Assembly (NCBI GenBank): GCA_016744705.1
Contig: JADGDU010000015.1
Span: forward strand, 49,263-113,262
Length of the DNA: 64,000 bases
Source of the DNA: Candidatus Krumholzibacteriia bacterium
Lineage (GTDB): Bacteria > Krumholzibacteriota > Krumholzibacteriia > LZORAL124-64-63
Direction: 5' to 3'
Shown here: piece after piece, positions 1,992 to 57,100 of the stretch
How the letters are laid out: each line of letters starts with the position of its first letter
Position numbering within the stretch: the stretch's first letter is position 1
The notes under the pieces: generated by a model
Told to the model about the DNA's origin: nothing
What the model saw: the letters and a program-made list of their open reading frames with translations, nothing else
Databases searched by the model: none
Translations under genes and position numbers: made by a program

Positions 1992-3758
1992 TTGAAATTC
2001 GGGGTGTTTCCCCGCATACTGCGGCCCATGAGTTTACCACTGCCATCAGACAACCCTCTCTTCACTCTGGCCATTCTGCTGGCCTTTGGTGCCTTGTGTG
2101 GCCAGATGGCCAAACGCATCGGTCTGCCTTCAGTAACCGGTCAGATTCTGGCCGGCATTCTCCTGGGACCATCGGTTTTTCATGTTTTTGGACACGATGC
2201 TGCGGAAGGCCTGCGTCCCATTGTACATTTTGCTCTGGGGCTTATCGCTGTCGACGTAGGAACTCATCTGCATTTTCCCAAATTGCGCAATTCATTCAGT
2301 CGGCTGGGCATCTTACTTCTTCTGGAAATGACGCTGACTCCTCTGCTTGTTTATTCGGCTCTGGTTTTTGTGGGCCGGCAAGATTGGACCATCGGGGCCC
2401 TATTTGCTGCTCTGGCCATTGCCACAGCCCCTGCTACAGTGATGGCTATTGTTAAAGAGACTCGCAGCCGGGGGGTCTATGCCCGCACTTTGATAGCTGC
2501 TGTGGCCTTGAACAACATTGCCTGTATCACTTTGTTTGAAATGGCTTACTCGGCAGTGCGCGCCACCATGAACCCGGCCAATGAGGCCACCAGTGGTTCC
2601 GTTTTGATGGCTCCCTTGATCCAACTGGGGGGATCCATAATGGTGGGGGCTCTGGTGGGAGGGCTGCTGGTGCTTTTCACCCGCCATGTGATCAAGGTCG
2701 AGGCTTTGACCACTGTATCGATCATTGCCATTTTCCTAACCACGGGAATTGCCGATCTGCTGGGCTTCAGCCACCTGTTGGCCTGTTTGTTCCTGGGGGT
2801 GGCCATGGTCAACCTGGCGCCTGAAAAAGAGGAAATCGGCCACCGCGTTTTTGTGAATTTTGAGCCGGCAGTGCTGGCCATTTTCTTCACTTTGGCTGGG
2901 TTTGAACTGGATTTCGGTTTTCTGGCCCAGGGATGGCTCCTGGTGGCTTTGTTTGTGGTGGCCCGCATGTTTGGCAAAGTCTTTTCGGGTGTGCTGGCCA
3001 TGCGCATGGCCAAAGGAACCCAGAATGTGCGGCGATATTTGGGATTGGGTCTTATTCCCCAGGCTGGGGTGGCGGTGGGCCTGTTGCTGCAATTGGGTGA
3101 CGACCCGGTTTTTGCAGGTGTCAGTCAAATGATTCTGGCCGTCGGGGTTACTGCTGTGGCTATCAATGAGATCGTAGGACCCCTGACCACCCGGCTGGGG
3201 CTGCACAAGTCGGGCAATGCGGGCATGGACAGGGCCCGGCTCATCGATTTCATCCACGAAGAGAACATCCTCACCGATTTTCAGGCAGAGACTAAGGAGG
3301 AGGCCCTGCGGCAGCTCATTGATTTGATGGTTTCGAGCCATGGGGTGGAAATGGTCAAAAAGGACTTCCACAAGGAAGTGATGGATCGAGAGAACATCAT
3401 GTCCACCTGCTTGGGGCGGGGGCTTTCCATGCCCAGTGGCACCCTTGAGGGCGAAGACCAATTGGTGGGCGTCATGGCCATCAGTCGCCAGGGTTTGGGA
3501 TTCAAAACTCCCGACGGCCTTCCTATCCAGTGCATGGTTCTGATGGCGGCCACCCGGGATCAAATGTCTCGCTACCACGAAGCCCAGGCGGTATTAGCCC
3601 GCACTCTGACGGCCGACTGGAGCTTGCGTATTCAGCTCTATAATTCCCGCACTCCGGCTCACGTTTATGAGATTCTGCACGCCGAAGATTTTTCAGATTT
3701 TAATTATTTCCTGGATGCCGGGGTGGATAGCCAGGACAGCATGCCCAATCCCATTTAG
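1992..3758 (+). CDS. Cation:proton antiporter (CPA1/CPA2-type Na+/H+ or K+/H+ exchanger) with C-terminal PTS EIIA type-2 (PtsN-like) domain
   Basis: About 400 aa of multi-TM hydrophobic sequence typical of Na_H_Exchanger proteins. The C-terminal ~150 aa (LIDFIHEENILTDF...KEEALRQLIDLM...) resemble EIIA-Fru/Ntr. The TTG start is at 1992; an alternative ATG is at 2028. Confidence 0.7.
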   Translation: MKFGVFPRILRPMSLPLPSDNPLFTLAILLAFGALCGQMAKRIGLPSVTGQILAGILLGPSVFHVFGHDAAEGLRPIVHFALGLIAVDVGTHLHFPKLRNSFSRLGILLLLEMTLTPLLVYSALVFVGRQDWTIGALFAALAIATAPATVMAIVKETRSRGVYARTLIAAVALNNIACITLFEMAYSAVRATMNPANEATSGSVLMAPLIQLGGSIMVGALVGGLLVLFTRHVIKVEALTTVSIIAIFLTTGIADLLGFSHLLACLFLGVAMVNLAPEKEEIGHRVFVNFEPAVLAIFFTLAGFELDFGFLAQGWLLVALFVVARMFGKVFSGVLAMRMAKGTQNVRRYLGLGLIPQAGVAVGLLLQLGDDPVFAGVSQMILAVGVTAVAINEIVGPLTTRLGLHKSGNAGMDRARLIDFIHEENILTDFQAETKEEALRQLIDLMVSSHGVEMVKKDFHKEVMDRENIMSTCLGRGLSMPSGTLEGEDQLVGVMAISRQGLGFKTPDGLPIQCMVLMAATRDQMSRYHEAQAVLARTLTADWSLRIQLYNSRTPAHVYEILHAEDFSDFNYFLDAGVDSQDSMPNPI

Positions 3759-3777
3759 AGGGTCTGGCCAGCGCTGA

Positions 3778-4854
3778 ATGAATTCTGCTGATAGAATCAA
3801 ACTGAAACAAATCTCAGGCGAATCCGTTAGTGTCGAATCAATTGTCCTAATAACCACGGAAGGGCTTGCTATCAAATCGAATGGTTCAAATACCGACATC
3901 CGGGTGACGAATCTTAATTTCGCTTATCTGAAGGATCCGGTCCTCAAAAATGTGGATTTCACATTGAAACAGGGGGCTGTTGGGCTGTTGGGGCCTAATG
4001 GATCGGGAAAAACCACCTTACTGCGCTGTTTGCTGGGGCAGGTTCCTTTAAAGGCCGGTCAGGTGGAGGTTTTGGGGCTGGACATGGCTAAAAAGGCCCG
4101 TCTGGCCCGTGCTGGATTGGGCTGGATGCCCGAACGCGGCGGGATCATTCCCGGCATGAGCGGTGTGGGGCTGGTGGCCTACCTGGGACAACTGTCCGGA
4201 ATGCCGTCCCGGGATGCGATGCAAAGGGCCCACGAAGTGCTGCACTTTGTTGGACTGGCCGACGAACGCTACCGCCAATGCGACGACTATAGCCAGGGAA
4301 TGAAGCAGCGCCTCAAGCTGGCTCAGGCTTTGGTCCACGATCCCACCTGGCTCTTTTTGGATGAGCCCACCAGTGGCTTGGATCCCCGGGGCCGCGTAGC
4401 CATTCTGGAACTCATCCGTGACCTGGCCTGGAATAAAGGCCTGGGAGTTATCCTCTCCACGCACCTTCTGGCTGATGTGGAAACCGTGTGTAAAGAAATT
4501 CTGGTGTTGCGCGATGGCGAGTTGCTGGCCCGGGAAACAGTTGATTCGGTTGGGCATGCCCCGCTGCAGGTTTTTGAAGTTGAAGGTTTTGGAGATGAAG
4601 AAGCCTTCCTGGCCGGCCTGAAAAAACTGGGAGCCAGTGTCACTGTGGACAAACGTCTGTTGCTGGTGAAACTGGATATGAAGAAAATCACCGGCGCCAC
4701 TGCCGATCTTTCTGATAAATCGGTTCCTTTCCCCGCTGCCGCGGGGGTGGGCGCTATCCTCTCGGTGGCATCAGATTGCCAATACGGTTTGCGCCGTGTG
4801 CGCCGCCGTCCCGTTTCTCTTGCCGATGAATTTTACAAAATGGTGGAGGCCTGA
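3778..4854 (+). CDS. ABC transporter ATP-binding protein
   Basis: Walker A 'GPNGSGKTT', signature 'YSQGMKQRL', Walker B 'LFLDEPTSGLD'. Confidence 0.85.
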   Translation: MNSADRIKLKQISGESVSVESIVLITTEGLAIKSNGSNTDIRVTNLNFAYLKDPVLKNVDFTLKQGAVGLLGPNGSGKTTLLRCLLGQVPLKAGQVEVLGLDMAKKARLARAGLGWMPERGGIIPGMSGVGLVAYLGQLSGMPSRDAMQRAHEVLHFVGLADERYRQCDDYSQGMKQRLKLAQALVHDPTWLFLDEPTSGLDPRGRVAILELIRDLAWNKGLGVILSTHLLADVETVCKEILVLRDGELLARETVDSVGHAPLQVFEVEGFGDEEAFLAGLKKLGASVTVDKRLLLVKLDMKKITGATADLSDKSVPFPAAAGVGAILSVASDCQYGLRRVRRRPVSLADEFYKMVEA

Positions 4855-16495: not shown

Positions 16496-19400
16496 ATGTC
16501 TTTGGAAGCTTACAGTCCTGATAACCATGTCCGCATCGTCACGGCCGCCAGCTTGTTCGACGGCCATGACGCCGCCATCAATATCATGCGCCGCATTCTC
16601 CAGGCCAGTGGGGTCGAGGTCATCCACCTCGGCCATAACCGCTCGGTCAAAGAAATCGTAGATTGCGCCATTCAGGAAGACGCCCAGGGCATCGCCATCA
16701 CCAGTTATCAGGGTGGGCATGTGGAGTATCTGAAGTACATGTTCGATTTGCTGAAAGAGGCTGGGGCCAACATCCGCATCTTTGCCGGTGGCGGGGGGAC
16801 CATCTTACCGGTGGAGATTGATGAGCTGCAGGAGTATGGCATTGCCCGTATTTTTTCTCCCGACGACGGACGCAGCCTGGGCCTGCAAGGCATGATCAAC
16901 GAAGTTTTGCAGCAGTGCGATTTTGCCGTGGGGGTAGAGCCCTCAACTGCGAACTTAGCTGAAGACGGTGATCTCGGCAGGCATTTGAAACAACTGGAAA
17001 GCCGCGATCCCCGGGCTCTGGGACGACTCATCTCTGTAGCCGAAAACCACCCCGATGCCGGGGATGATCTGATGGAGGCGGTGCAGACTGCCGGCGCAAA
17101 AATTGCGGATGGAAAAACCATTCCGGTGCTGGGCATCACTGGCACTGGTGGTGCAGGGAAAAGCTCTCTGGTGGACGAACTCGTGCGGCGTTTCCTGGAC
17201 GATTTCAAAGACAAGACCATCGCCATTGTTTCGGTGGATCCTTCCCGGCGCCGCAGCGGTGGGGCGTTGCTGGGTGACCGTATCCGTATGAATGCCATTG
17301 ATGACCCCCGGGTGTATATGCGTTCTCTGGCCACTCGTCAGTCAAATCTGGCTCTCTCTAAGTACGTGCGCCAGAGCATCGACATCTGCAAAGCCGCCAG
17401 CTTCGATCTGGTCATTGTAGAAACCAGTGGCATCGGCCAAAGCGATACCGAAATCACCGAACATTCAGATGTGGCTTTGTACGTGATGACTGCTGAATAC
17501 GGGGCGGCCACCCAGCTCGAAAAAATCGATATGCTGGACTTTGCCGACCTCATCGCCATCAACAAATTTGACCACCGGGGCAGCCTTGACGCCCTGCGGG
17601 ATGTGCGAAAGCAATACCGCCGCAACCACAATCTTTTCGAAGGCGATGATGAAAGTTTGCCTGTGCATGGCACCATCGCTTCCCAGTTCAACGACCCCGG
17701 CATGAACCAACTTTACTTGTCCATCATGGACAGTTTGGTGGAGCGCACCGGTGCTGATCTGAAGTCTGATTTCCAACTGACTGAAGCCATGAACAAACGG
17801 GCCTTTATCATCCCGCCCGAACGGAATCGCTACCTGGCAGAGATTCGCGACGACAACCATCGGTACAATGATTTTGTGGACCAGCAGTGCGCCATCGCCC
17901 GTCAGATGTTTCAATTGGATGGGACCATCAATCTGCTCCGGGAGAAGGCCGAGGATGAGCCCTCTTATTTGGGCGAGCTGCAGTCTCTTTACACTGAGTT
18001 GGAAGACCGCCTGGACCGGGACTGCCACAAGCAGTTGAAAAACTGGCCCCAGTTGGTGGAAGCCTACAAGGCCGACAAATTTGTATTCCAAGTTCGCAAC
18101 AAAACCATCGAGCAAGACCTGACGAGCACTTCTCTGAGCCACACACGCATTCCCAAAGTTTGCCTGCCCCGGTACGAAGACTGGGGCGACGTTCTGCGTT
18201 GGATTTTGACTGAAAACGTACCCGGATTTTTTCCTTATGCCGCAGGGGTTTTCCCACTCAAGCGCGAAGGCGAAGATCCCACTCGCATGTTTGCCGGCGA
18301 AGGTGGCCCTGAGCGCACCAACCGCAGGTTCCACTATGTGTCGCTGGGTATGCCTGCGGCGCGTCTTTCCACGGCCTTTGATTCGGTGACGCTTTACGGT
18401 GAAAACCCTGATCCTCGCCCGGATATTTACGGCAAAGTGGGCAACAGTGGCGTGAGCGTGGCCACTGTGGATGATGCCAAAAAGCTATATTCCGGTTTTG
18501 ATCTGGCAGACCCCAAAACCAGTGTTTCCATGACCATTAATGGACCTGCGCCTATGATGTTGGCCTTTTTTATGAATGCGGCCATCGATCAGGGATGTGA
18601 AAAACACATCATTGAAAACGGTATGCAGGCCGAGGTGGAAGCAAAGATTGAAGCCATTTACAAAGGCAGGAAACGCCCTACCTATCAAGGTGATTTGCCA
18701 GAAGGCAATAACGGCCTGGGGTTGATGCTTCTGGGTGTTAGTGGCGACCAGGTCCTGGATGCGGAGGTTTACCAGAAGATCAAAGCCGAAACTCTGTGCG
18801 CGGTGCGGGGAACCATTCAGGCGGACATCCTCAAAGAAGACCAGGCCCAGAACACCTGCATCTTCTCTACGGAATTTGCCCTGCGCATGATGGGTGATAT
18901 CCAACAGAACTTCATCGACAGTGGTGTGCGGAATTTCTACTCTGTTTCCATCAGCGGTTACCACATTGCCGAGGCCGGAGCCAATCCCATCAGCCAGCTG
19001 GCCTTCACCTTGGCCAACGGGTTCACCTTTGTGGAGTATTATCTTTCACGGGGCATGTCTATCGACAGCTTTGCGCCCAACCTTTCTTTCTTCTTCAGCA
19101 ACGGCATGGATCCTGAGTATTCAGTTATGGGCCGGGTGGCGCGCCGCATTTGGGCCAAGGCCATGAAGATGAAATACGGGGGCAACGAACGCAGCCAAAA
19201 ACTGAAGTACCATATCCAAACCAGTGGCCGCAGCTTGCACGCCCAGGAAATCGCCTTCAACGATATCCGCACCACGCTTCAGGCTCTGTACGCCATTTAC
19301 GACAACTGTAACAGCTTGCACACCAATGCCTATGATGAGGCCATCACCACGCCCACCGAAGAGAGTGTGCGCCGGGCTATGGCCATCCAGATGATCATCA

Positions 19401-19906
19401 ACAAGGAGTTGGGTCTGGCGCGGAACGAGAACCCATTGCAGGGTTCCTTCATCATCGAAGAACTGACCGACCTGGTGGAAGAAGCGGTGCTGACAGAATT
19501 TGCCAGCATCAGTGAGCGCGGCGGTGTGTTGGGGGCCATGGAACGCATGTACCAGCGCACGAAAATCCAGGAAGAATCCCTGCATTATGAGTCCCTGAAA
19601 CATTCGGGAGAGATGCCCATCATTGGGGTCAACACGTATCTTGATCCGGCTGGTTCACCGACCATCATTCCCAGTGAAGTGATCCGCTCCACGGAGACCG
19701 AGAAACAGTATTCCATTGAGTCGCTCAATGCCTTCCATGAGCGCAATGCCGGTCAGGCTTCGGAAGCATTGGCCAAGTTGCGGCAGGTTGCGGTGGAACA
19801 TGGCAATACTTTTGAAGCCATGATGGAGACTTCCAAAACTTGTTCCATGGGGCAAATATCCCGGGCTCTTTATGGAGTGGGCGGGCAATATCGCCGGAAT
19901 ATGTAG
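16496..19906 (+). CDS. icmF: Fused isobutyryl-CoA mutase IcmF (N-terminal B12-binding domain + MeaB-like G-protein + methylmalonyl-CoA-mutase-like catalytic domain)
   Basis: The N-terminus '[19 protein letters not shown]...' is a B12-binding DxHxxG-type domain. The P-loop '[17 protein letters not shown]' is MeaB/ArgK-like. The C-terminal ~550 aa carry mutase TIM-barrel motifs. The 1136-aa length fits IcmF. Confidence 0.8.
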
Positions 19907-36123: not shown

Positions 36124-37113
36124 GTGGCTGCTGAGTTTTATTTGGGTGCAGATATAGGCGGCACGGGCGTCAAATACATCATCACCGATGATCAGGGGGG
36201 CATCTTTCACCAGGGCGAAGTGCCCACCGATCCCCACAGTGCCAAGCGCACCCTGGGTCGGCTGGCCATGGAAGTGGCCGAAAGAATTTCCCCACCCTCA
36301 GATTCAGACGAAGCCACCTTTTTCCGACTGGCGGCCGTGGGGCTGGCCTGCGCAGGTATTATCAATCCAGCCAGTGGTCACCTGGGGCGCTCTCCTAATT
36401 TACCTGGCTGGGAAGACACCAACCTGAAGCGCATCATCGCCAACGAATTTCAGGACAAACCTTCAGTGGTGGCTAACGATGTGAACGCGGCTCTTTTTGG
36501 AGAGTTCAGTTTTGGTGCCGGTCGCGGCTGTCGTAATCTGGTGATGATTGCATTGGGCACCGGTGTGGGTGGTGGCATCATGCTGGACGGGGCCCTGGTG
36601 GTAGGCACTCATAACGGAGCGGCGGAAATTGGGCACATGGTTTTGGATCCTTCAGGCCCAACCTGCACTTGCGGTGGGGTGGGCTGTCTGGAAGCCTGGG
36701 CCGGCAGTGTGGCCATCCTCAAGCAAGCCCGCCTGTTGGCGAAAGTGGAACTGAAAGAAACGGCTCTCGCCCAACTGGTCCTGGAAAAAGGCGAACATTT
36801 GAGTACCCGCGATCTCAGCCTTTTGGCCGAACAAGGTGATGCGGCCTCCCTGGCTCTTTTTGCCGAAGTGGGACACAGATTGGGGCATGCTGTGGGCAAT
36901 TTGGTCAATATTTTAGATCCCGATAGAGTCATTATCGGGGGAGGGGTGGCCCAGGCTGGCGATTTAATCCTGGGTTCCTGCCGGGCACTGGTGCCGGCTA
37001 TGGTCCTGGCTGAAGAGGCCAAAGACATTCCCATTGTCTCCGCTGAATTGGGCCCCATGTCCGCCGCTGTGGGTGCGGCCTGTCTGGCGCGTCAAGAGCA
37101 GGCCGGAGGCTGA
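36124..37113 (+). CDS. ROK family sugar kinase (glucokinase-like)
   Basis: ADIGGTGVKY...GHMVLDPSGPTCTCGGVGCLEAWAG is the ROK signature with a CxCGxxGC zinc motif. Confidence 0.75.
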   Translation: MAAEFYLGADIGGTGVKYIITDDQGGIFHQGEVPTDPHSAKRTLGRLAMEVAERISPPSDSDEATFFRLAAVGLACAGIINPASGHLGRSPNLPGWEDTNLKRIIANEFQDKPSVVANDVNAALFGEFSFGAGRGCRNLVMIALGTGVGGGIMLDGALVVGTHNGAAEIGHMVLDPSGPTCTCGGVGCLEAWAGSVAILKQARLLAKVELKETALAQLVLEKGEHLSTRDLSLLAEQGDAASLALFAEVGHRLGHAVGNLVNILDPDRVIIGGGVAQAGDLILGSCRALVPAMVLAEEAKDIPIVSAELGPMSAAVGAACLARQEQAGG

Positions 37114-40100
37114 TGAAAAATTCTGGAGGCAGTCATTTTTTCAGAACTCTGACCGGATTGTTCCGGTTTGTTCTGATGCCTTCTTTAGTCATGATGATTT
37201 TGGTGGGGCTTTGGCCCCCGACCTGGAGTGCCGCTGCAGAATCCAAAGATAAACCCCAACCGACCCTGCGCCGCACCCGAATCGATGCCGACCGTTCCAT
37301 CGATCGAATGGTCAATGGCGAACGCATCACTTTTCTGCTGGGCAATGTTTTTATCGACCGCGACAGCTTGACTGCTGCCGCTGATACGGTGCGCCATTAC
37401 CGGGACAGGGATGTGTACGAGTTTCTGGGCAGTGTGGTACTGACCCGGGATGATGGTGTGCTCACCTGCCTCCGCGCCTTCCACAACCAAGCCGAGGGCA
37501 CTTCAGACTTTTACGGAGATGTGCGGCTGACCGAAGGCGATGTCATCGGAACCGGCCTCAAGGGTGAATCTCGTTCCGATGGCCGCTTCTTCAAGTTGAT
37601 CAATGAAGCCTTACTGGTCACTCCCGACTACACAGTGCGTGGTGATACCATCATTCGTGACCGCCAGGATGGCACCGGCGAAGCTTTCGGAAACGTGCGT
37701 ATCATGGAACCGGGTTCTCTGAACCTGGTGACGGGTGAGCATGCTTTTTTTGATGGCGAAACAGATCTGGCGGAAGTGGACATTAACCCGGTCATGACCA
37801 GCCGGGAAACTGAAGGCAGCCTGTTGGTGAGCAGAGCTCGGGTGATGCGATTTTTCCGGGCCGAAAATAAAGTGGTGATGATTGATTCAGTGCGCATCCA
37901 CCAGGATCAGACTCTGGCTGTGGCCGATACTGCCATCGCCTATGGTCGGGAGCACATGGTTCTTACGGGCAACCCGCGCGTGAATATGAGCGATTCCAAT
38001 ACCATGATTGGTGATCGCATCGAATTTTTCTATCTGGAAGGCAAGCTGGATCGGGTGATTTTGGTAGGATCGGCCCGCATGGAAGACAGCACTCCTGACA
38101 GTCTGGCTGCTATCTACAAGGGCCTTCCCCGCATGGATATTCTGGAAGGCGATAGCATCAGCATCCAGTTTGTGGATGAAGAGATCCATCAGAGCGTGGT
38201 TGTAGGCTCGGCACACAGTCTCTACACGCCCATGGATTTGAATGATGAAGTGGCCACCAATGATGTGACGGGCGATACCATCACTATCGATTTCAAGAAT
38301 CGCCGGGTGGGAAGGGTGCACGTTGTGGGTAACATGTCCGGCAACTACCGCTTTGCCAAGCTGGCGGCCATGCGGGATATGCTGGGACAATCGGAACGCC
38401 TTGTGGATATGCTACGCCGCAGCTCCCAGGACAGCACCGCTTTTGCCGACTCGTTGCTGGCTGCGGGCGTTGATACCAGTGTGGTGGCCTTGGCTGACTC
38501 CCTGATCATCGCCTACGCCGATTCACTCACCGGTGTTTTGGGTATGGCCTCTTTTCTAAATCCGGAAGCGGCCCCGGCCATGGCGGCCAATGCCATCGAT
38601 TCTCTGATGACTGCGGCCATGGATTCTTTGGCCTCAGCCGGCTATGACACCACCGCTTCTGGGTTGGATTTCATCGCCAACGCCGAGGATGTAAGATACA
38701 CCGGCCGTTCGGTGGATTTTGAAATGGATAAAAAATCCATCGATATCCTCGACAATGCTGTGCTGGAATTTGGCACCATGAAGCTGAGCGCCCAGCACAT
38801 TAACCTCAGCACTGTGGACCGAGAACTTTATGCTGAGGGCGACCCGCTGATTGAAGACAGCGAAGACATTGCCGGTTATCAGATGGGGTACGATTTTGCC
38901 AACCGCACCGGAGCGGTGAAGCGGGGTGTGACCTCTTTCGACGGGTATTTCTACGTTGGTGATGAGATCCAACGTTTCCCCGATACAACTCTGAAAATTT
39001 GCGATGCCCGCATGACCAGTTGCGACCTTGAAGAACCCCATTACCACTTCTGGGCTGACAAGATGAAGATGCGCATGGGGGATAAGGTGGTGGCTAAGCC
39101 TATCGCGCTGCACATCGGCAAGGTTCCGGTTTTTGCTTTGCCGTTTTATTTCAAATCCCTGAAAGAGGGCCGGCAATCGGGCATCCTTTTTCCCTCCTTT
39201 GATTTCGGTTGGTCCAGCCGCGACGGACGTTATATACGTGACTTTGGTTATTATTGGGCCACCAACGACAACATGGATTTTGTCTTTGAAGCGGACTATA
39301 ACGAACGCAAGGATTTTGCCTACCGCGTCTCCAATCGGTATGTCAAACGGTATGCATTCAACGGGGGATTCGACTATTCCAAGAAGATTAGTCTGGGAGA
39401 TACAGAGCGCGAAGAGTGGCAGTTTCGCTGGAACCACAACCAACCCATTCTCTTTGACGATTATAAGTTTCGCAGTGATGTGCGCATGGCCAGTACCTCT
39501 CTGAGCACCAACGATCTTTCGGGAAACAATGATCGGGATGTGGTCAGTGGCGAGATGAAATCCAGCATGTATCTGAGCCGGAATTATTCTTTCATGAGCA
39601 GCAGTTTGGATGCCTCTCGCAAAGAATACGTCAACGCCGAGGATGATGATGATGCTACCGATGCGGCCCTGTACAACATGACTCTGCCGTCCATGTCATT
39701 CAACTTCCGGGAGTTCAATCTGGCCAAGGCTTTGCGTGGTGGAGAGCAGGGATCCTTCCTGGGGAACATGGCTCGCAATACCAGTTTCAAGCAGGGGTAC
39801 TCTGTCAAAATGTACCAATCGGGATATGAGTTGCACAAAGAGCGCAATTACGACGCGGGTGGCAATTGGTCCCTGGCTCTGCGCCCCCCTCGTGTCTCTA
39901 TCTTCAATGTGAACTTCAGCGCCAGTGCCGGCCATTCCTGGAATCGCGATAGCAGTTATGGTCAATTCTATGTGGAGGACACCGACACCACCGGGCATCT
40001 CGAAGATTATGACACCGTCACGGAAGAGACCAACTCCAATGTACGCTTCAGTGCGGGGTTAGGAACGAATCTCTACGGGACTTTTCCTTTGAACGTGGGG

Positions 40101-41066
40101 CGGCTGAAAGCCCTGCGCCACACCATGCGCCTTAACAGCAGCTACAGCCTTTCTCCCGGCCTCGGTGGGGGCAAGCAAAACCATAGCACCAGCATTTCAC
40201 TCACTATGAACAACCGCCTGGATTTGAAATATCTCTCTGGTGCTGCCGACACCACCCTGACGGAGAAGAAGCTGGATGGTTTGTTTGACTGGTCACTGAG
40301 CACCAATTACAGCCCCAAAAATGAACCAGGTGACCGCTGGGGAAACATTAATAGTGGATTGTCCATCCAACCGGGACAGAGCCGCGCTTTGCGTTTGAAA
40401 GTTACCAATTCCATCGACCCTAAAAATCTGGCTTTAATCTCCACTCGTTTCACTTATGGACTGAGTTTCTCTGGCCGGGCCGATGTAGGACCCGTGCCCC
40501 AGGAAGCTGTGCCGGAACGTAACAGGAGGCTGGATCAATTGGGTGTGGAGATGGGGGCTCCCGTTGATTCTCTGGCCATAGAAGACGAATTCCTGGACCA
40601 GGGATATGAAGACGATCCGGAAGAGTTTTTCGATGGTGAAGAGAGTTCATTTTACGATTTCTACAATCGCCAGGGGCGCCAAGGCGAGGGAAAAGATGAG
40701 GATCCCACCGAAGGGGGACGTTTCATTCCCTTCAATATGAATGCCTCGTTTTCTTACAGCTACAACAACGACACTCACACCCGGCGGGCCACCACCAACA
40801 TGGGCGTAACGGCGACCTTGACCAAAAGCTGGAAATTTAATTACACCGGATCCTTTGATTTGGTCACCGGGGCTCCCACCCGTCAGCAGTATGGGTTGAA
40901 AAAAGACCTTCATTGCTGGGCTCTTGAGTTCAACCGGACCGTCAGCAACGTAAATTCCGAATTTGGATTCCGAATTTACCTGAAATCCATTCCGGCGCTG
41001 AAAATGACCCGGGGACAGGAAGGCAGCATGGGGGCCCTGGGCAGCGGCTTGAGCGGCGGGTTCTAA
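37113..41066 (+). CDS. lptD: LPS-assembly outer-membrane protein LptD (extended N-terminal OstA-like beta-jellyroll repeats + C-terminal beta-barrel)
   Basis: A signal peptide is present. There are tandem OstA-like modules (GNVFIDRDSLTAAADTVRHY...). The barrel-region stretch 'CDARMTSCDLEEPHYHFWADKMKM...PVFALPFYFKSLKEGRQSGILFPSFDFGWSS...YYWATNDNMDF' is collinear with E. coli LptD 'C..C...[23 protein letters not shown]...YYWNIAPNMD'. The ATG overlaps the ROK stop by 1 nt. Confidence 0.75.
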   Translation: MKNSGGSHFFRTLTGLFRFVLMPSLVMMILVGLWPPTWSAAAESKDKPQPTLRRTRIDADRSIDRMVNGERITFLLGNVFIDRDSLTAAADTVRHYRDRDVYEFLGSVVLTRDDGVLTCLRAFHNQAEGTSDFYGDVRLTEGDVIGTGLKGESRSDGRFFKLINEALLVTPDYTVRGDTIIRDRQDGTGEAFGNVRIMEPGSLNLVTGEHAFFDGETDLAEVDINPVMTSRETEGSLLVSRARVMRFFRAENKVVMIDSVRIHQDQTLAVADTAIAYGREHMVLTGNPRVNMSDSNTMIGDRIEFFYLEGKLDRVILVGSARMEDSTPDSLAAIYKGLPRMDILEGDSISIQFVDEEIHQSVVVGSAHSLYTPMDLNDEVATNDVTGDTITIDFKNRRVGRVHVVGNMSGNYRFAKLAAMRDMLGQSERLVDMLRRSSQDSTAFADSLLAAGVDTSVVALADSLIIAYADSLTGVLGMASFLNPEAAPAMAANAIDSLMTAAMDSLASAGYDTTASGLDFIANAEDVRYTGRSVDFEMDKKSIDILDNAVLEFGTMKLSAQHINLSTVDRELYAEGDPLIEDSEDIAGYQMGYDFANRTGAVKRGVTSFDGYFYVGDEIQRFPDTTLKICDARMTSCDLEEPHYHFWADKMKMRMGDKVVAKPIALHIGKVPVFALPFYFKSLKEGRQSGILFPSFDFGWSSRDGRYIRDFGYYWATNDNMDFVFEADYNERKDFAYRVSNRYVKRYAFNGGFDYSKKISLGDTEREEWQFRWNHNQPILFDDYKFRSDVRMASTSLSTNDLSGNNDRDVVSGEMKSSMYLSRNYSFMSSSLDASRKEYVNAEDDDDATDAALYNMTLPSMSFNFREFNLAKALRGGEQGSFLGNMARNTSFKQGYSVKMYQSGYELHKERNYDAGGNWSLALRPPRVSIFNVNFSASAGHSWNRDSSYGQFYVEDTDTTGHLEDYDTVTEETNSNVRFSAGLGTNLYGTFPLNVGRLKALRHTMRLNSSYSLSPGLGGGKQNHSTSISLTMNNRLDLKYLSGAADTTLTEKKLDGLFDWSLSTNYSPKNEPGDRWGNINSGLSIQPGQSRALRLKVTNSIDPKNLALISTRFTYGLSFSGRADVGPVPQEAVPERNRRLDQLGVEMGAPVDSLAIEDEFLDQGYEDDPEEFFDGEESSFYDFYNRQGRQGEGKDEDPTEGGRFIPFNMNASFSYSYNNDTHTRRATTNMGVTATLTKSWKFNYTGSFDLVTGAPTRQQYGLKKDLHCWALEFNRTVSNVNSEFGFRIYLKSIPALKMTRGQEGSMGALGSGLSGGF

Positions 41067-41187: not shown

Positions 41188-41481
41188 ATGAATAAAACAG
41201 AACTCACCGACAAACTGGCTAAGCAAACGGGAATGTCCAAAGCAGATTCCAAGCGGGCTATTGACGCAATCTTTTCCACCGCACCGCGGGAGGGAATCAT
41301 TGCCAGCGCCGTGTCTAAGGGTGACCGAGTCCAAATTACTGGTTTCGGAACGTTCGAACGACGCAAGCGTAAAAAACGCAATGGTCGCAATCCCCAAACT
41401 GGTGAAACCATCGTGATCGCCGCAGCAAAATACCCTGCTTTCGTGGCGGGCAAAAGCTTGAAGGAACGAATCCAGAAGTAG
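41188..41481 (+). CDS. hup: DNA-binding protein HU
   Basis: MNKTELTDKLAKQTGMSKADSKRAIDAIF...ITGFGTFERRKR...GRNPQTGETI is canonical HU/IHF. Confidence 0.9.
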   Translation: MNKTELTDKLAKQTGMSKADSKRAIDAIFSTAPREGIIASAVSKGDRVQITGFGTFERRKRKKRNGRNPQTGETIVIAAAKYPAFVAGKSLKERIQK

Positions 41482-41594: not shown

Positions 41595-41686
41595 CTCAGT
41601 GGGAACTTACTGCCGCCGATGGTATTGGATCATGAGTCCTGTGCCCGCGTGGCATTATTAACAGATTTCATGGGAAAGGTTTGGAT

Positions 41687-43060
41687 ATGATCAAGCTTAA
41701 GGGTTTGTCGGGCCTATTGGGTCTGGCGACATTAGCCCTGTTGTTGCTCTCAGTGGCCTCTGGGCCAGGAGAAAGCACTGACGGCACTGTTTTTGCTGCC
41801 GAAGGCGGAAATTGGAAAAACGTCACGGTGTTGTACTTAAACGACGTGAAGGGGAAAATAGAACCCTGTGGCTGAAAGTCTAAGCAGCGTGGCGGGGTTG
41901 CCCGGAGGGCGACCTACTTTGACTCTGTTTGGAATGAAGACGTGCCTGTTCTCATGGTCGACGGCGGTGACCTTTTTGGTCGCCGTAATAGAAACGAACA
42001 GCACCAGACCCGTTTCCTGTGTGAATGCACAGCTGATTTCGGATACGATGGCATCGGCCTTGGTGAGGCCGACCTGAACTATGGTCTGCCATTTTTGATG
42101 GAAATGATTGAGAAATACGATTTGCCTTTCACCAATGCGAACGTGGTCAACCGGGAGACGGGCGAACTGATCCTTCCCGAATACCTGGTTGTGGAGAAAA
42201 ATGGCGTCAAATTTGGTTTGGTCAGTGTGCTGGGTGAAAACTATAAAATTATCACCATGACGGACACCGACAGCGGACTGGATGTTAAGGACCCTGTGGC
42301 TACTTTGCGTGCCTTGCTGCCTCGCATGCGTGAGGAAGTGGATACCGTAGTCTTGCTGGGGCATTTGGGTGAAGGCAATACCGACACGGTGCTGCGTGAG
42401 GTCAAGGGTATCGATGTCTGTGTCATGGGACACTCTCATCGTACTTTGAAAAACGAACGCATCGTGGAAGATACGATTGTACTGGGTGCGCCCCACGAAG
42501 GTCGTTATGTGGGCCGGGCCAATATCTTCATCGAAGAGTCTGACGGCAGAGTCATGGCTGTGGATGTGGAATTGACCAGTCTGGATGATGCTGTGGAACA
42601 CGAGCCAGATATGTATGCCCGGGTTCAGGATTATCATGCCAGTTTCGAAGAATTTAAGCTGGCCAAGCGAGCGGCCTTTCCCAGAGATTTGGGATCTGAA
42701 AAAGAAACATATCTGGGTGCCCGGTCCTGTAAAAGCTGCCATGAGGATACTTGGGAAGCCTATACGGCCTCCTCTCATAGCCAGGCTTACACGACCATCC
42801 GGAAAAAGGGTCAAAACAACGAGCCGGAATGCATTCTTTGTCATACCACGGGGTACCGCTACCAAAACGGGTATTCTGAAGAGCGTCCTTTCAACCAACT
42901 GGTGAATGTGCAGTGTGAATCCTGTCACGGCTACGGCACTGAGCACTCCAGAGATGGCAAATGGCGGGCTCAGGCTCAGGATGCCTGTATCACATGTCAC
43001 GACCAGGAAAACAGTCCCGAGTTTGATTACACTACTTATTGGGAAAAAATCAAACACTAG
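41687..43060 (+). CDS. Secreted fusion: degenerate 5'-nucleotidase/calcineurin-like metallophosphatase domain + C-terminal tetra-haem cytochrome c. The single reading frame is interrupted by an in-frame TGA at 41873-41875 (selenocysteine candidate or disruption)
   Basis: The signal peptide MIKLKGLSGLLGLATLALLLLSVASG is followed by 'VTVLYLNDVKGKIEPCG-TGA-KSKQRGGVARRATYFDSVWNEDVPVLMVDGGDLFG', which is collinear with the 5'-NT 'HTNDxHGxLEP...GGxARxAT...DAGD'. The ORF-track entries 41681 and 41942 are in the same frame. A 'GHSH' motif is retained. The C-terminus has 4x CxxCH (CKSCH, CILCH, CESCH, CITCH). Confidence 0.55.
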
Positions 43061-43081: not shown

Positions 43082-43921
43082 TTGAAAACAAAACTCACTC
43101 CAGGGAACGGTCGACCATTGTTGTCGGCCGTTCCTTTCATGGGGGCTTTAGCTCTCGTATTAATGATTCTGCCGGCTGCTCCAGCAGTGGCTCTGGACCT
43201 GTTCACTTTGTGGCGGCAACCAGAGATCCCCCTGCGCTTGGAAGAGGGCAGTTGGGTCGATTACCGCAGCCAGGTTATGGCCGGCGGACGCAGGGAAGAA
43301 GGCCTCACCCGAGTCTCCTGCCTGACGAAGGCCGATGGTTCTGATGAAGATACTTTTCTTTTAGAAATATTGCCTTTGCAGGAACCGGAAGATCGCGTCC
43401 TGATGCCCATACCAGGCCAGGGTGCCCAGGTCCGTGTATCGCGTGATGTGTTAAAACGGGAGGGTGCATTGATGGCGGCTATTGTCTCGGTGCACCATTG
43501 GCAGGACGGCGTCTCTCAGGAGATCACTCCTGAAGAGTTGCGGGACGACCCCATGATTTCCACCACCTTTACCAGTGACTTTGTACCAGATGAAGTGAGC
43601 AACCAGCAATCCACCACCCGGATTGTAAGGGGGCACCAGATGGTTTGCCGCCAGTGGGTCCTGGCCAGTGCCGACACCCAGAGTGTCGTGATGCCCGCGG
43701 GGAACATGAATCAAATCTCCACTCGGGAAATTGCTGCCGCGGTGAATGAAGAGGTTCCCTTTTTGGGTTTGGCTTACGCTTCAGAGCGGGTGCGCTCAGT
43801 TTCCTCTCTCGATCCTCCAAATAAAAGGATACCAGTGCCCCCTGCCCGAATTCGGGTGGAAGTGATGGAATTGGTCGGGTTTGGCTTTGATGCAGTGCCT
43901 CATCTTACGGGTGGGGATTGA
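43082..43921 (+). CDS. Secreted hypothetical protein
   Basis: The ORF is 279 aa. The likely start is at the ATG giving MGALALVLMILPAAPAVA (signal peptide). No recognised domain. Confidence 0.35.
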   Translation: MKTKLTPGNGRPLLSAVPFMGALALVLMILPAAPAVALDLFTLWRQPEIPLRLEEGSWVDYRSQVMAGGRREEGLTRVSCLTKADGSDEDTFLLEILPLQEPEDRVLMPIPGQGAQVRVSRDVLKREGALMAAIVSVHHWQDGVSQEITPEELRDDPMISTTFTSDFVPDEVSNQQSTTRIVRGHQMVCRQWVLASADTQSVVMPAGNMNQISTREIAAAVNEEVPFLGLAYASERVRSVSSLDPPNKRIPVPPARIRVEVMELVGFGFDAVPHLTGGD

Positions 43922-44962: not shown

Positions 44963-45142
44963 ATGATCAGCGTCAAAGAAGATGGTTTGCTTGTAAGAGA
45001 TGAAAGTTTCGTGAAATACCGGCGCTTGCTTCGCCGGGCCGAGGACGAGGGTCGCATTGATGGTCCCTGCAAGTGCTTGGTTTGTGGTATGCGTTATCTC
45101 ACCAAAGATGAATCAGAAGCTTGCTGCCGCATCAATTCCTGA
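44963..45142 (+). CDS. Small (59 aa) Cys-rich protein (CxC...CxxC...CC), possible zinc-ribbon
   Basis: An AAGGAGG RBS lies 5 nt upstream of the ATG. The product is MISVKEDGLLVRDESFVKYRRLLRRAEDEGRIDGPCKCLVCGMRYLTKDESEACCRINS. It is absent from the ORF track (below 60 aa). Confidence 0.4.
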   Translation: MISVKEDGLLVRDESFVKYRRLLRRAEDEGRIDGPCKCLVCGMRYLTKDESEACCRINS

Positions 45143-45854
45143 CCCACATCTGAAGCGATATGGTTCGCCAATCGGAGTTGCTTTGAAGTCCCGACAGTTT
45201 TGTTCCGTCTGTAAGGAATGGCTGGATATGGAAGTCGTCCCTACCAATGATGGGGACGACGATGATGGTGTTGTCTGGTATCGCTGTCCGCAGTGCCAGG
45301 GGTTCTTGCCAAAGCTGAAGGGTGCCACCGAATCCGAAGAGAAGCCTCAGAAGGCTGAGACGGCGGATACCCCGGCTGAGCCTACGGCCCCTGAAGCCGA
45401 TCGCTGGGACAGCCCTGCCGCCATGATGCAGGATTTGAAAGATTCTCCCGCTTCCGCCTTTTCCATGCAGGAATCATCAGATGAACCAGATTCTGATGAC
45501 GATGTTCTGGTGGGTACGGTTAAGGCAGATACGCCGGAACCGAAGACCGAGCCTGTGGTTGAAGATCCACCTGAAGTTCAGGAAGATATAGAACCGGTCA
45601 AAGAAGACGAGCCTGCCAAGGATGTGGAACCCGTCCTGGAATATGCCGCCATGTTGGCCGAACTGGATGTGACCGAGGCGGCACCCTACCGACCCTGGGC
45701 AACCTATGAGGTGGGGCAATGCATCAATCATCTGGCCTGGAACGATTGCGGAGTGGTGGTAGCCAAGGAAGATCTTCCCGGCGGCCGCAAAATTATCAAA
45801 TGTTACTTCGAAGAAGCGGGCGTGGTGCGCTTGATCGAAAAGGCTCCTCGTTGA
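45057..45854 (+). CDS. Hypothetical protein: N-terminal zinc ribbon (CSVC...CPQC), acidic low-complexity linker, conserved C-terminal domain
   Basis: The ORF-track start at 45057 overlaps the small Cys-rich ORF in another frame. The true start is probably downstream (e.g. TTG ~45175), but must precede 'CSVCKEW' if the ribbon is intact. The D/E/P-rich linker is 'DEPDSDDDVLVGT...EPVKEDEPAKDVEPV'. Confidence 0.45.
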   Translation: MMVPASAWFVVCVISPKMNQKLAAASIPDPHLKRYGSPIGVALKSRQFCSVCKEWLDMEVVPTNDGDDDDGVVWYRCPQCQGFLPKLKGATESEEKPQKAETADTPAEPTAPEADRWDSPAAMMQDLKDSPASAFSMQESSDEPDSDDDVLVGTVKADTPEPKTEPVVEDPPEVQEDIEPVKEDEPAKDVEPVLEYAAMLAELDVTEAAPYRPWATYEVGQCINHLAWNDCGVVVAKEDLPGGRKIIKCYFEEAGVVRLIEKAPR

Positions 45855-46747
45855 GCCGGCTTTTGCGTCTGGGGATCACTGTTCTCGGGGCGCTGCTCCT
45901 ATTAACTGTCGTATTGACGGACCCTCTCCATGCCCAGATGCTTTATCTGGATGATATGCCTTTTTCCACCCCCGCCGATTCCACTTCCCGTCTGGCCTTA
46001 AAAGCCGACTTCAGCCGTTTCGAAGACCAAAAATTCAACTGGTCTGTGAACCGCCTTTTGATAAGCATCATGCTGCCCGCCGGTGAGGAGGGCTCGTTTT
46101 TTATACGCATGCCTTTCACCTCCTTTGATACGGGGAACGTAGGGCTCTTTTCCCGCTGGCCATGGGTCCAGGGAATCTCCGAGGATGAAGGGTGGCCCAA
46201 CGGCCAGCGCATCACCAGCTTGGGGCAACCGGAAATTGGAGCCACTGGGCCCACCGGTTTTTCTTTTCTGCCGCAATGGTATTACAGCGTTGCCTTGGGT
46301 TTGCCTGTGGGGACCGATCGTCTCTACCCCTTCGGGTCCGTCAGCATGCCTTTGCGGTTGGAGATGAGGAAAATCATTCCCTGGGGAGCCAGCAAACAGA
46401 TCGGCCTGACTGTGGGCTCACTGATCAATATGCAATCGGCCAAAGACTATCTGGATGGCGAAGAGGCCTTCCCCAGTGGGCCCCATGTGGGCGGCGTGCT
46501 GAACTGGTTTCAGGGCCGGGGTTCGCGTTTGACCTTGTCATACGATTTTTACAGTAAAAATGGCCGGAAGTCTCAAATATTGGGAGTGGAGGCCTGGACA
46601 TCCTGGACCGATGACGGTTCGGTGGGGTTTAAGGTTGCCAGAGAATTACAAGGTTCCCTGGACCGTCCCGCAGCTTGGTATTTCACCATCTCGTTCCGTC
46701 TGGATAGCAACTCCCTCAGACCTTCCCAGGAAATTATTGCTCCCTGA
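45851..46747 (+). CDS. Secreted, probably outer-membrane beta-barrel-like hypothetical protein
   Basis: The TTG at 45851 (overlapping the upstream stop) gives MSRLLRLGITVLGALLLLTVVLTDPLHA|QMLYLD, a signal peptide. The body has alternating-hydrophobic beta-strand patterns (LTLSYDFY, WYFTISFRL). Confidence 0.4.
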   Translation: MSRLLRLGITVLGALLLLTVVLTDPLHAQMLYLDDMPFSTPADSTSRLALKADFSRFEDQKFNWSVNRLLISIMLPAGEEGSFFIRMPFTSFDTGNVGLFSRWPWVQGISEDEGWPNGQRITSLGQPEIGATGPTGFSFLPQWYYSVALGLPVGTDRLYPFGSVSMPLRLEMRKIIPWGASKQIGLTVGSLINMQSAKDYLDGEEAFPSGPHVGGVLNWFQGRGSRLTLSYDFYSKNGRKSQILGVEAWTSWTDDGSVGFKVARELQGSLDRPAAWYFTISFRLDSNSLRPSQEIIAP

Positions 46748-54148: not shown

Positions 54149-57100
54149 ATGCGGAAAGTGCTGTTTTTGGTTTGGGTGATTGTTCTGACGGTGGGGTCTG
54201 CCTCCGGGGCCACCGCTGGATGGATCAGTTTCGACAAACAGGAAATGGCATTCCCCCAGATCCAGGCCAGGCGACAATCTGAGAGTCTCACTGTCGTGGA
54301 TATCACCATGAGCGGCCTGGAAAGCAATGTCGTGATGGTCCAGGGGCAACCCCATGATCAGATTCGCATTCCCGGGCATTGGTTCACTCTGGAAGCAGGT
54401 CAGCCGGAACTTCCTTTCATCACCAGCAGCCTGGTCATTGCCGACAGTGGCAATCCGGTGGTGCGGGTGCTCAATAGCACCTGGCGGGAAATTTCTGCTC
54501 ATCCGGTTCTCCCATCCAAGGGTTCTATTCTGCGCACGGAAGATCCGGCCACAGTGCCTTACGCTTTTGGTGCTGTTTATCAAAGCAGGGATGTCTTTCC
54601 CGCATCTGAGGTCCAACTGAACGAACCATACATCATGCGTGACGTGCGAGGCGTGAGTTTGCGCATCAACGCCGTGCGCTGGGATGTGGAGCGGGGCGTC
54701 TTGCTGGCCTTGGAAAGCATGACCCTGGAAGTGGAAACTTCCGGTGCGGGGGGAATCAACTCTCGGCAGGGAAAAATGCAGAGTGGCATCGACACCCAGT
54801 TCGCCCAACTTTATAATCAGGCTTTTGACAATTACGAGAACCCCGCCAAATACAACATGGTGGCCGTTGATGGCCGCATGCTGGTAGTGTGCCACGATTC
54901 CTTTTTGGGCACCATTGATCCCTTTGTGCAATGGAAGCGTTCCACCGGCATAGATGTGCAGGTCATCAGCACTGGTAGTGTAGGGGGAACCTCCCTGGGT
55001 ATCCAGAGCGCCATCGATTCTCTGTATGCCGAACCAGAAGGATTGACTTATGTGATTCTAGTGGGAGATCAAGCTCAAGTGCCCTCCTACACCGGAACCT
55101 TCGAAGGCGCTGATGACGATACTCGCTATGGCAATATCGAAGGTGATGACCTTTATCCAGACCTCTTCGTGAGCCGCATCTCGGGCTCCAACCCGGTGGA
55201 TATTCAAACCCAGATCAACAAATTTATTCGTTATGAACGGGATCCTGATGCTGGTGCCGATTGGTATCATCTCGGGGCGGTGTTAGCCTCCAGCCAGGGC
55301 GACCCCTCGGACTCTGAGCGTGCCGGTTGGTTGCGCGATGACATGTTGAATTACACCTTCACTCAGGTGCACGAAGTTTTTCAGCCCGAAGGTGATACCG
55401 CTGATATTACCGACGCCGTCAATGGCGGAGTCAGTCTGATCAATTATCTCGGCCATGGCTCGGGCACGTCCTGGACCAATCCCCACTTTACGCAGGCCGA
55501 TATCAATGCCCTGAGCAATGGATGGCAGAACCCCTGGATTTTGGACGTGAGCTGTTCCAACGGAGACTTCTCCACCGACGAATGTTTTGCCGAAGCCTGG
55601 ATGCGTGCCGGTGACCCGGCCCAGCCCCAGGGAGCTTTGGCCACTTACAGCGCATCCACCACAACGCCCTGGATTCCCCCCTGTGTGATGCAGGCTGAAG
55701 CAGTGGATCTGATGGTGGCGAACCAGGCCACGGTGTTGGGCTCTCTGTATTTTCACGGCATCATGAAGGTGATGGACGTATACCCGGGCAATAGCCAACT
55801 GGTGGAACAGTACAATGTTTTTGGCGATTGTTCGTTGCAGATTCGCACCAATACACCAGTGGTGCCGGCGATGCAGTATGACGATGTACTGGCCCTGGAG
55901 GCCACGGTGTTTCCCGTGGATACAGGTCTTGAAAATTGTCGGGTGGCTTTGTACAGCGGGCAGCAATTGCACGGTGTGGGCGTAACCGATGCGCAGGGTC
56001 ATGTGGACATTTCCCTGACCAACCCAGTGACTGTTCCCGGCCCGGTGAGTATGACGGTAACAGGGTACAATGTATTGACCCAGGTCCTCACTCTGCAAGC
56101 GGAAGTCCCCGTGGTGGTGGACATTCAGCCGTCCTCAATTCCCGTGGGTCAGACTACGGATATAACGGTGACTTTGTCAGATTCACCAGCCCTGGCTTCC
56201 CTGGAAAATGTGACGGTTACGGTGGAAGGTTTTGGTGTGCAAGCTGTGCAGGGGCTCACCGGTGTTGACGGTGTGGCTACCATCAGTGTGACTCCTGAAT
56301 TTGGCGAAAATTTGACTGTGCGGGGCGTGGAGTTCGGCGCCGGATATGACATGTTCAGCGTAGATTTGGGCGTCAGCGGTGCCTTGGATCTGACCCAGGC
56401 AAATATAGTTGCTGAAGTGGCTGCCATCGGTATGATCGATACCCTGACTCCGGATTGGGAAGGCACCATTACTGGTACCAGCGATGTGGCTGATTTCGAC
56501 ATTAAAATCAAGGGGCCCGGCCTGGATGTTCTGGCCAGGGGATCTGGATACTCCCTGGTGCAAAATGTGACTCCGCTGGGCACGGGTGTGGTTTATGCCA
56601 CCTTGCTGAAAACCGGTTACAACATCTATCAATCGGAAATCCAAGTGATTCCTGCCTATGGAACCCTCGGGGGATCGATCACGGCTTCTGGTGGAGCAAC
56701 TCTTGATGGAGTGCGCGTTTTTGGATTCCACACGGGAGATGATCCCCAGGGAGAACCAGTCTTTGATCTGGTCAGCGATGCCACCGGCGAATTCAGCAAT
56801 CCGGTCCAACTGCCTTCCGGAAGTTACGATTTGTATGCCCGTAAATACGGGTATTTGGATTATGCCGAAACCTTTGTGCTGGAGCACGGGGCCAATGACC
56901 ATGATGTGGTCATGGACCTCTCTCCAGTGGGAGTTCTTACCGGACAAATTTCAGCTCTTGAAGGTGGTGCGGCCATCAATGCCACCATCCAGGTTATCCG
57001 CCTGGATAACAACGACCAAATGGCCTTGGTGATGACCGACGAACTGGGGCGATACACCTGTCCGGAATTGCCTTTTTATGACTACCGGATGATTGTGACC

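Follow-up and report, generated by a model that had tools for sequence, protein, structure and literature searches.

The window analysed here, a 64-kb stretch of a contig from a Candidatus Krumholzibacteriia bacterium, carries on its forward strand a complete gene for a UshA-like (seleno)protein, in which a 5'-nucleotidase-like domain is joined to a tetrahaem cytochrome domain and whose reading frame contains a TGA codon, read here as selenocysteine (Sec, or U). The features of the gene are given below, with the residues of the encoded protein numbered from the ATG at 41687.

41687..43060, + strand: UshA-like PCGU (seleno)protein gene, complete, 457 codons including Sec63, plus the TAG stop (translation; NCBIfam NF041198)
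43058-43060, + strand: TAG stop codon of the selenoprotein gene
41687..41770, + strand: predicted Sec-type signal peptide, MIKLK and then the hydrophobic GLSGLLGLATLALLLLSVASG; end approximate (sequence reading)
41816..42676, + strand: 5'-nucleotidase-like N-terminal (metallophosphatase-fold) domain and long linker helix
41843-41854, + strand: motif I remnant D53-V-K55-G56 (canonical D-x-H-G)
41864-41875, + strand: P60-C61-G62-U63 motif (EPCG-TGA), with the TGA codon at 41873-41875
41895..41915, + strand: hairpin resembling a selenocysteine insertion sequence (SECIS), GGGTTGCCC-GGA-GGGCGACCT, with a 9-bp stem and a 3-nt loop
41963-41971, + strand: GGD motif of the N-terminal domain
42059-42079, + strand: LGEADLN motif of the N-terminal domain
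42359-42370, + strand: GHLG motif of the N-terminal domain
42428-42439, + strand: GHSH motif of the N-terminal domain
42704..43057, + strand: c554-like tetrahaem domain (Pfam, NF041198 and PDB 1bvb matches), with His364, His420 and His457 as candidate distal haem ligands
42728-42742, 42830-42844, 42914-42928 and 42986-43000, + strand: CKSCH, CILCH, CESCH and CITCH of the tetrahaem domain

The frame from 41681 to 43060 (+) is interrupted only once, by the TGA at 41873-41875, which stands in the context ...DVKGKIEPCG[TGA]KSKQRGGVARRA... (at greater length, ...LNDVKGKIEPCG[TGA]KSKQRGGVARRATY...), and the list of open reading frames (ORFs) presents the region as two ORFs in the same frame, 41681-41875 and 41942-43060. 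A first-pass annotation, made from the sequence alone, had taken 41687-43060 for one coding region; the extent of the gene was right, but the frame is not uninterrupted, and the TGA had been passed over without mention. The motifs singled out there (DVKG, GD, GHSH and four CxxCH) are all present in the translation. A 406-amino-acid (aa) antisense ORF, 41837-43057(-), spans nearly the whole gene and "hits" 70 related loci; we rejected it because it mirrors the coding strand, which is the conserved one.

Relatives of the gene were collected by scanning genome contigs, one genome per species, which yielded 80 loci, mostly from Candidatus Krumholzibacteriia. The scan relied on alignment-derived patterns from the haem domain, so the sample is biased towards haem-bearing members; a contig scan with the single protein P0001 as the query found no relatives. 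Conservation was assessed in 70 full-length relatives, all from different species (29-87% identity). Position 63 is an in-frame TGA in 68 of them, with conserved peptide on both sides, and Cys in the other two, the distant loci L076 and L081, both of which read SCGC. All 68 full-length loci with PCG, like the window, have the in-frame TGA, and they follow the pattern PCG-TGA-[KHR]xxxxGG[LV]xRRA. A full-length Cys ortholog also exists: P0052 (458 aa, 54% identical) has ECGCK at the Sec site. Elsewhere TGA behaves as a stop: it terminates 18 of the 35 long ORFs in the window, which therefore shows no global recoding, and a general reassignment of TGA was rejected in favour of the standard code.

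The stretch following the TGA folds with -28 kcal/mol (z -3.6), and the stem of the hairpin begins 19 nt past the TGA. Across 58 distinct sequences 90.6% of the hairpin cells are paired, as opposed to 35-55% in slid registers; three pairs show compensatory changes on both sides, and none of 500 shuffles reaches the observed covariation score. The helix overlaps the codons of G-[LV]-A-R-R-A, and the synonymous codons there are strongly constrained: Arg73 is encoded by CGG in 66 of the 68 Sec loci (CGG makes up 29% of the Arg codons in the remainder of these genes), Arg74 by AGG in 49 of the 68 (5% elsewhere) and Ala72 by GCC in 64 of 64 (57% elsewhere). Five Cys-form genes use other codons (e.g. 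GCG CGA CGG in L090) and lack the 9-bp hairpin, with the peptide G-G-L-x-R-R kept in three of them. Because the TGA is conserved in relatives, the hairpin covaries, is constrained and is missing from the Cys forms, and TGA otherwise serves as a normal stop in the window, we judge from these comparisons of sequences that a selenocysteine codon (Sec63) stands at 41873-41875. Since the attachment of c-type haem needs export and the signal peptide is encoded 5' of the TGA, with the haem domain 3' of it, read-through would be required, and only the read-through product should therefore be exportable as a c-type cytochrome. A scan of the window for further candidates with an in-frame TGA and a Cys motif turned up no other gene that would convincingly encode a selenoprotein.

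With U read as C, the protein matches the NCBIfam family NF041198 (UshA_like_PCGU, "UshA-like (seleno)protein") at 279.4 bits (E 5.1e-83), a small margin above the curated cutoff of 275 bits. It shares with the family the P-C-G-U that comes after the first beta-strand and follows a degenerate motif I, the 5'-nucleotidase-like N-terminal domain and the C-terminal tetrahaem domain; it is shorter than the 519-position profile, positions ~272-400 of which are largely unmatched, and its C-terminal 128 aa alone match profile positions 401-519 of 519 with 106.7 bits. A genuine selenoprotein gene has been mis-split here, and it adds a new member to a known family, which appears as "UshA-like protein, CxU" in a 2008 Global Ocean Sampling survey and in reviews of 2022 and 2026 (PMC2398784, PMC9312934, PMC13188914); in the papers searched it figures in table entries only, with no function given. 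The fusion of a metallophosphatase-like domain with four CxxCH motifs, held in the first-pass annotation not to be a standard annotated architecture, is the curated family's own, as the NF041198 profile includes the haem domain and the surveys list the family. The same profile match counts against the proposal of a degenerate phosphatase, for the altered motifs taken as signs of decay are the native motifs of NF041198. Among other curated Sec proteins, those of NF049981 have a UshA-like fold and those of NF040886 are multihaem cytochromes; the window protein reaches 42 of the 140 bits required for the former and does not match the latter.

An exhaustive representative search with the N-terminal domain gave 6894 matches, among which three CxC-bearing architectures recur: proteins of ~310 aa consisting of the N-terminal domain only (DCGCK...GGLAR), without a fused haem domain; proteins of about 370-450 aa with four haems; and proteins of about 1200 aa with two CxC domains and four haems. 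The last are exemplified by P0125 (L083:215-3838), P0129 and P0131, each ~1200 aa long, in which two CxC metallophosphatase-like domains (PCECP..., ACGCPGNP...) precede one tetrahaem domain; for P0125 Pfam also gives a faint DSBA match.

The current public annotation of the family conceals most of this. There are 301 database homologs, and most of the 120 listed are fragments of ~368-387 aa that start just after the TGA, under names such as "multiheme c-type cytochrome", "cytochrome c554/c'-like protein" or "2',3'-cyclic-nucleotide 2'-phosphodiesterase"; public gene calls divide the gene between a 62-aa and a 368-aa ORF (L001:2734-2922 and 3001-4107). Because the homologs are called as post-TGA fragments, the Sec residue and the signal peptide have been lost from the databases for this candidate class, in what looks like a systematic mis-annotation of a selenoprotein across Krumholzibacteriia.

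The N-terminal part of the protein has a 5'-nucleotidase/calcineurin-type fold with non-canonical residues in motifs I and III. The Pfam Metallophos match is marginal (21.9 bits against a cutoff of 21.5), and an HMMER search against PDB aligns residues 39-254 to 5'-nucleotidases (2z1a, E 2.7e-12), placing DVKG on DxH[AS], the PCGU loop on the loop that leads into the GGxAR helix, and LGEADLN on LGNHEFD. The AlphaFold2 model of P0052 is confident (predicted local distance difference test 91.5, predicted template modelling score 0.85); its top Foldseek matches are the N-terminal domains plus interdomain helix of CD73, UshA and 2z1a (TMq about 0.55, 305-340 columns), and the signal-peptide region forms a helix at 8-27. 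The fold with altered metal ligands proposed in the first-pass annotation is thus borne out by Pfam, by HMMER and by Foldseek. In motif I the metal-ligand His of D-x-H is replaced by Lys (D53-V-K55). For motif III the replacement of GNH[ED] was recognized correctly, but the reading "GLGEAD" was out of register by one: the alignment to solved 5'-nucleotidases equates GNHEFD with G-E-A-D-L-N, so that Asn has become Glu (E127) and His has become Ala (A128). In 5'-nucleotidases the motif I His and the motif III Asn-His bind metal and stabilise the transition state.

The window protein shares with Escherichia coli UshA, human CD73 and the Thermus thermophilus protein 2z1a a metallophosphatase fold at the N-terminus, a GGxAR helix, motifs of the types GD, GH and GHxH, and the long helix between the domains; it differs from them in having DxK for DxH and GEADLN for GNHEFD, in lacking the 5_nucleotid_C domain and in carrying four attached haems. 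The search of the window protein with Pfam gave no match to the substrate-binding domain 5_nucleotid_C; Pfam and the P0052 model both show the haem domain in its place behind the linker helix. CD73-type enzymes have two Cys in the loop where the window protein has Cys-Gly-Sec, and these two form a disulfide. The next most similar curated family is the thiosulfohydrolase SoxB (TIGR04486), at 67.2 bits here and up to 118 bits in relatives, with a cutoff of 550. SoxB is periplasmic, has the 5'-nucleotidase fold and acts on sulfur, not phosphate; the window protein, in contrast, lacks the SoxB C-terminal domain, has no sox genes nearby and has an incomplete set of di-Mn ligands. NCBIfam UshA scores 47 bits against a cutoff of 600.

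The C-terminal ~120 aa form the four-CxxCH module of c554 type that had been recognized at first reading: Pfam Cytochrome_C554 (PF13435) covers the four CxxCH motifs at 53.3 bits (gathering score 20.8; E 5.5e-14), and PDB matches include cytochrome c554 (1bvb, E 2.9e-8) as well as 6i5b. The order and the spacing of the haem motifs are those of Nitrosomonas cytochrome c554 (1bvb/1ft5); that protein is free-standing and has 211 aa, whereas here the module is a fused domain, and with 37.7 bits against a cutoff of 400 for the NCBIfam family Cyt554_Nsmonas the window protein is not an equivalog of Nitrosomonas CycA. Only three invariant His outside the motifs (H364, H420, H457) serve the four haems, which suggests by analogy that one haem may be five-coordinate, as is one of the haems of c554.

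Conservation in the 70 full-length relatives varies with the position. G56, C61, G62, position 63 (Sec or Cys), G70, R73 and R74 are present in all 70, and the four CxxCH motifs, H364, H420 and H457 in 69-70. Lower values were found for D53 (62 of 70), D95 (54), E127 (55), H226 (65) and H249 (57), and position 55 is K in 37, G in 12 and H in 10, with V and Q also occurring. Of the substitutions emphasized in the first-pass annotation, E127 is found in 55 and K55 in 37 of the 70; the four haem sites, whose conservation had likewise been a matter for checking, are kept in 69. Losses of ligand residues cluster in divergent members: L071, L073 and L074 have A, N, Q, A/G/N and A at D53, D95, E127, H226 and H249, and keep PCG-TGA and the haems. 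In the wider family the motif I Asp is found in only six of 30 representatives, with both Cys always present. Family-wide, as far as these alignments indicate, the Cys-x-Cys/Sec and haem sites appear to be invariant or nearly so, while the phosphatase metal ligands drift or vanish.

The genes surrounding the selenoprotein gene in the window include the following.

37113-41066, + strand: LptD homolog, unusually long (1317 aa; LptD_N, OstA_2, LptD_2), upstream of the selenoprotein gene
41188-41481: HU gene, after LptD, an order conserved in most related loci
43082..43921, + strand: p279, a secreted protein with a LolA/RseB-like fold, the conserved downstream neighbour
54149-58837 and 59098-63858, + strand: two tandem C25 (gingipain-like) peptidases of ~1560-1590 aa, 11 kb downstream

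The gene order, kept in most of the 80 loci, runs from an acetyl-CoA carboxylase carboxyl-transferase-like gene through Mur ligase-family, ROK, LptD and HU genes to the selenoprotein gene, p279, a DnaQ-like exonuclease and further genes; it reflects synteny within the lineage among housekeeping and envelope genes and does not amount to a functionally related operon. The distant members have unrelated neighbours, namely BamD/YfiO, ribosomal protein L22, CoaBC, an MFS (major facilitator superfamily) transporter or C25 peptidases, and the lipoproteins encoded downstream of L076 and L081, both Cys forms, have no sequence similarity to p279. One Cys form of 572 aa, P0231 (ENA ERZ27297570 contig; NF041198 302 bits), overlaps by 4 nt the end of a BamD/YfiO-like gene, another neighbour from outer-membrane biogenesis. 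A gene for a C25 gingipain-like peptidase lies immediately downstream of the UshA-like gene in L078 (2698-6489), L080 (2487-6248) and L084/85 (L084:2284-8841); the C25 peptidases of the window have a propeptide, CarboxypepD_reg, a P-domain and a FlgD_ig tail. We take this recurrent envelope and cysteine-peptidase context as a lead only, to a possible functional link between peptidase and redox enzyme.

Some other genes of the window deserve a brief mention. The gene at 16496-19906 (+) encodes a 1136-aa fusion of B12-binding, MeaB GTPase and methylmalonyl-CoA mutase parts with an IcmF-like architecture, and that at 1992-3758 (+) a 588-aa protein in which an Na+/H+ exchanger transmembrane domain is fused to an EIIA-2 regulatory domain of the phosphotransferase system (PTS). 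Two conserved ORFs without a Pfam match, 45057-45854 and 45719-46747 (+), are syntenic in 52-63 loci; as listed they overlap by 136 nt, and the second probably begins at a later position.

Starting from the gene structure, the evidence for Sec recoding, the family membership, the domain folds and the pattern of conservation, we consider the protein most probably (at roughly 65%) an exported periplasmic Cys/Sec redox selenoenzyme wired to c554-like haems, rather than a phosphatase or a dead scaffold. The TGA at 41873 would be read as selenocysteine with the aid of the hairpin 19 nt downstream, and the N-terminal domain retains the 5'-nucleotidase fold, with the loop after motif I bearing the invariant Cys61-Gly-Sec63. 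The nucleotide-binding C-terminal domain has been swapped, after the same linker helix, for the c554-like tetrahaem module. The Cys/Sec pair in the former active-site loop may then serve as the catalytic redox centre, alternating between a selenenylsulfide and the selenol/thiol, while the four haems would shuttle electrons between the pair and periplasmic electron carriers. We infer such a transfer of electrons between the pair and the haems, together with a loss of phosphatase activity: a periplasmic substrate would be oxidised or reduced, and phosphate esters would not be hydrolysed. As the substrate we would first guess at sulfur or selenium species, or at thiols of cell-envelope proteins. 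A Cys/Sec redox site fed by haems is favoured because the Cys-x-Sec/Cys and haem sites are kept while the metal ligands decay.

Several observations weigh against this interpretation. As to the recoding, no SECIS family was matched in the window by Rfam at gathering score, ARAGORN found no tRNA at all in the 64 kb, hence no tRNA-Sec, and no sel genes or other Sec machinery are present within the window, the rest of the genome being outside the data. As to the function, the surroundings of the family loci showed no conserved partner genes with redox, sulfur or selenium roles, and the ~310-aa relatives that consist of the N-terminal domain only indicate that a covalently attached cytochrome is not needed for the CxC domain to work. 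Finally, the window protein and its close clade (at least 54% identity) keep D53, D95, E127, H226, H249 and H251, so a residual metal site, possibly completed by Cys/Sec, may exist in this clade.

The retention of all these ligand-capable residues is what sustains an unlikely rival, in which the protein is a metalloenzyme: Cys61 and Sec63 would replace the lost His and Asn ligands and bind a metal with D53, D95, E127, H226 and H249, giving a metal-selenolate centre of the kind that formate dehydrogenase or [NiFeSe] hydrogenase has, with catalysis at the metal and the haems as a wire. D53, D95, E127, D129, N131, H226 and H249 are indeed strictly kept in the window protein and in all relatives of at least 54% identity, the Glu that replaces the motif III Asn is still a possible ligand, and the PCGU loop directly follows motif I. 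However, the ligand residues are mostly or wholly lost in more divergent members whose PCGU, TGA and haems persist, so that the family as a whole cannot work through a metal centre. A simple continuation of hydrolysis, as a phosphoesterase, a nucleotidase or a SoxB-type hydrolase with the haem domain as an accessory, would fit the 5'-nucleotidase fold and the rank of SoxB as the next-best NCBIfam match; we consider it very improbable, as the motif I His has given way to a variable residue (K/G/H/V) and the motif III Asn-His to Glu-Ala, 5_nucleotid_C is absent, and the scores of SoxB (67 against 550) and UshA (47 against 600) fall far below the cutoffs.

The first-pass annotation had favoured a pseudo-phosphatase scaffold, and it is conceivable that the phosphatase-like domain merely binds while the haems pass electrons on, in a non-catalytic scaffold, a sensor or a component of extracellular electron transfer. 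The missing canonical catalytic His residues, the multihaem domain and the envelope-gene surroundings (LptD upstream, the LolA-like gene downstream) speak for such a role. Selenocysteine is costly, though, and in characterised selenoproteins typically occurs in catalytic redox sites; because Sec, with a dedicated SECIS-like hairpin, is kept in 68 of 70 species, a catalytic redox site is indicated and a scaffold is improbable. A chain of four haems is short, moreover, and the adjacent genes include none for an outer-membrane conduit. Hardly tenable is the idea that the TGA is a real stop, in a pseudogene, through a sequencing error or between two genes for a 62-aa peptide and a 368-aa cytochrome. 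Public gene callers do annotate two ORFs, but the comparative data already contradict it: the same TGA, with the frame preserved, recurs in 68 independent species-level genomes, other homologs have Cys at its position, the hairpin covaries, and the downstream part would be left without a signal peptide.

Returning to the haem-wired Cys/Sec redox enzyme, a bolder version, whose parts form one joint claim that we hold possible but on balance doubtful, would make the family an uncharacterised catalytic type. The dimetal centre would have been exchanged for a Cys-Gly-Sec redox pair, and a c554-like chain of haems, one of them possibly five-coordinate, would stand in for the nucleotide-binding domain. 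The gene would be a near-universal envelope gene of Krumholzibacteriia, at a fixed position between LptD/HU and the LolA-like gene, which elsewhere adjoins BamD or lies directly upstream of genes for C25 cysteine peptidases. With respiratory electrons the enzyme might reduce or oxidise sulfur or selenium species of the periplasm, or thiols of proteins, e.g. to keep secreted cysteine peptidases or envelope proteins in their proper redox state.

No new kind of system is revealed by these results, and the interest that remains lies in the function of the family. Their value for annotation is that a split selenoprotein gene is recovered across a candidate class. With Cys-x-Sec and the haems kept and the metal ligands dispensable, they also lead to a testable hypothesis, namely that in this family a hydrolase fold may have been made into a Cys/Sec redox enzyme wired by haems.

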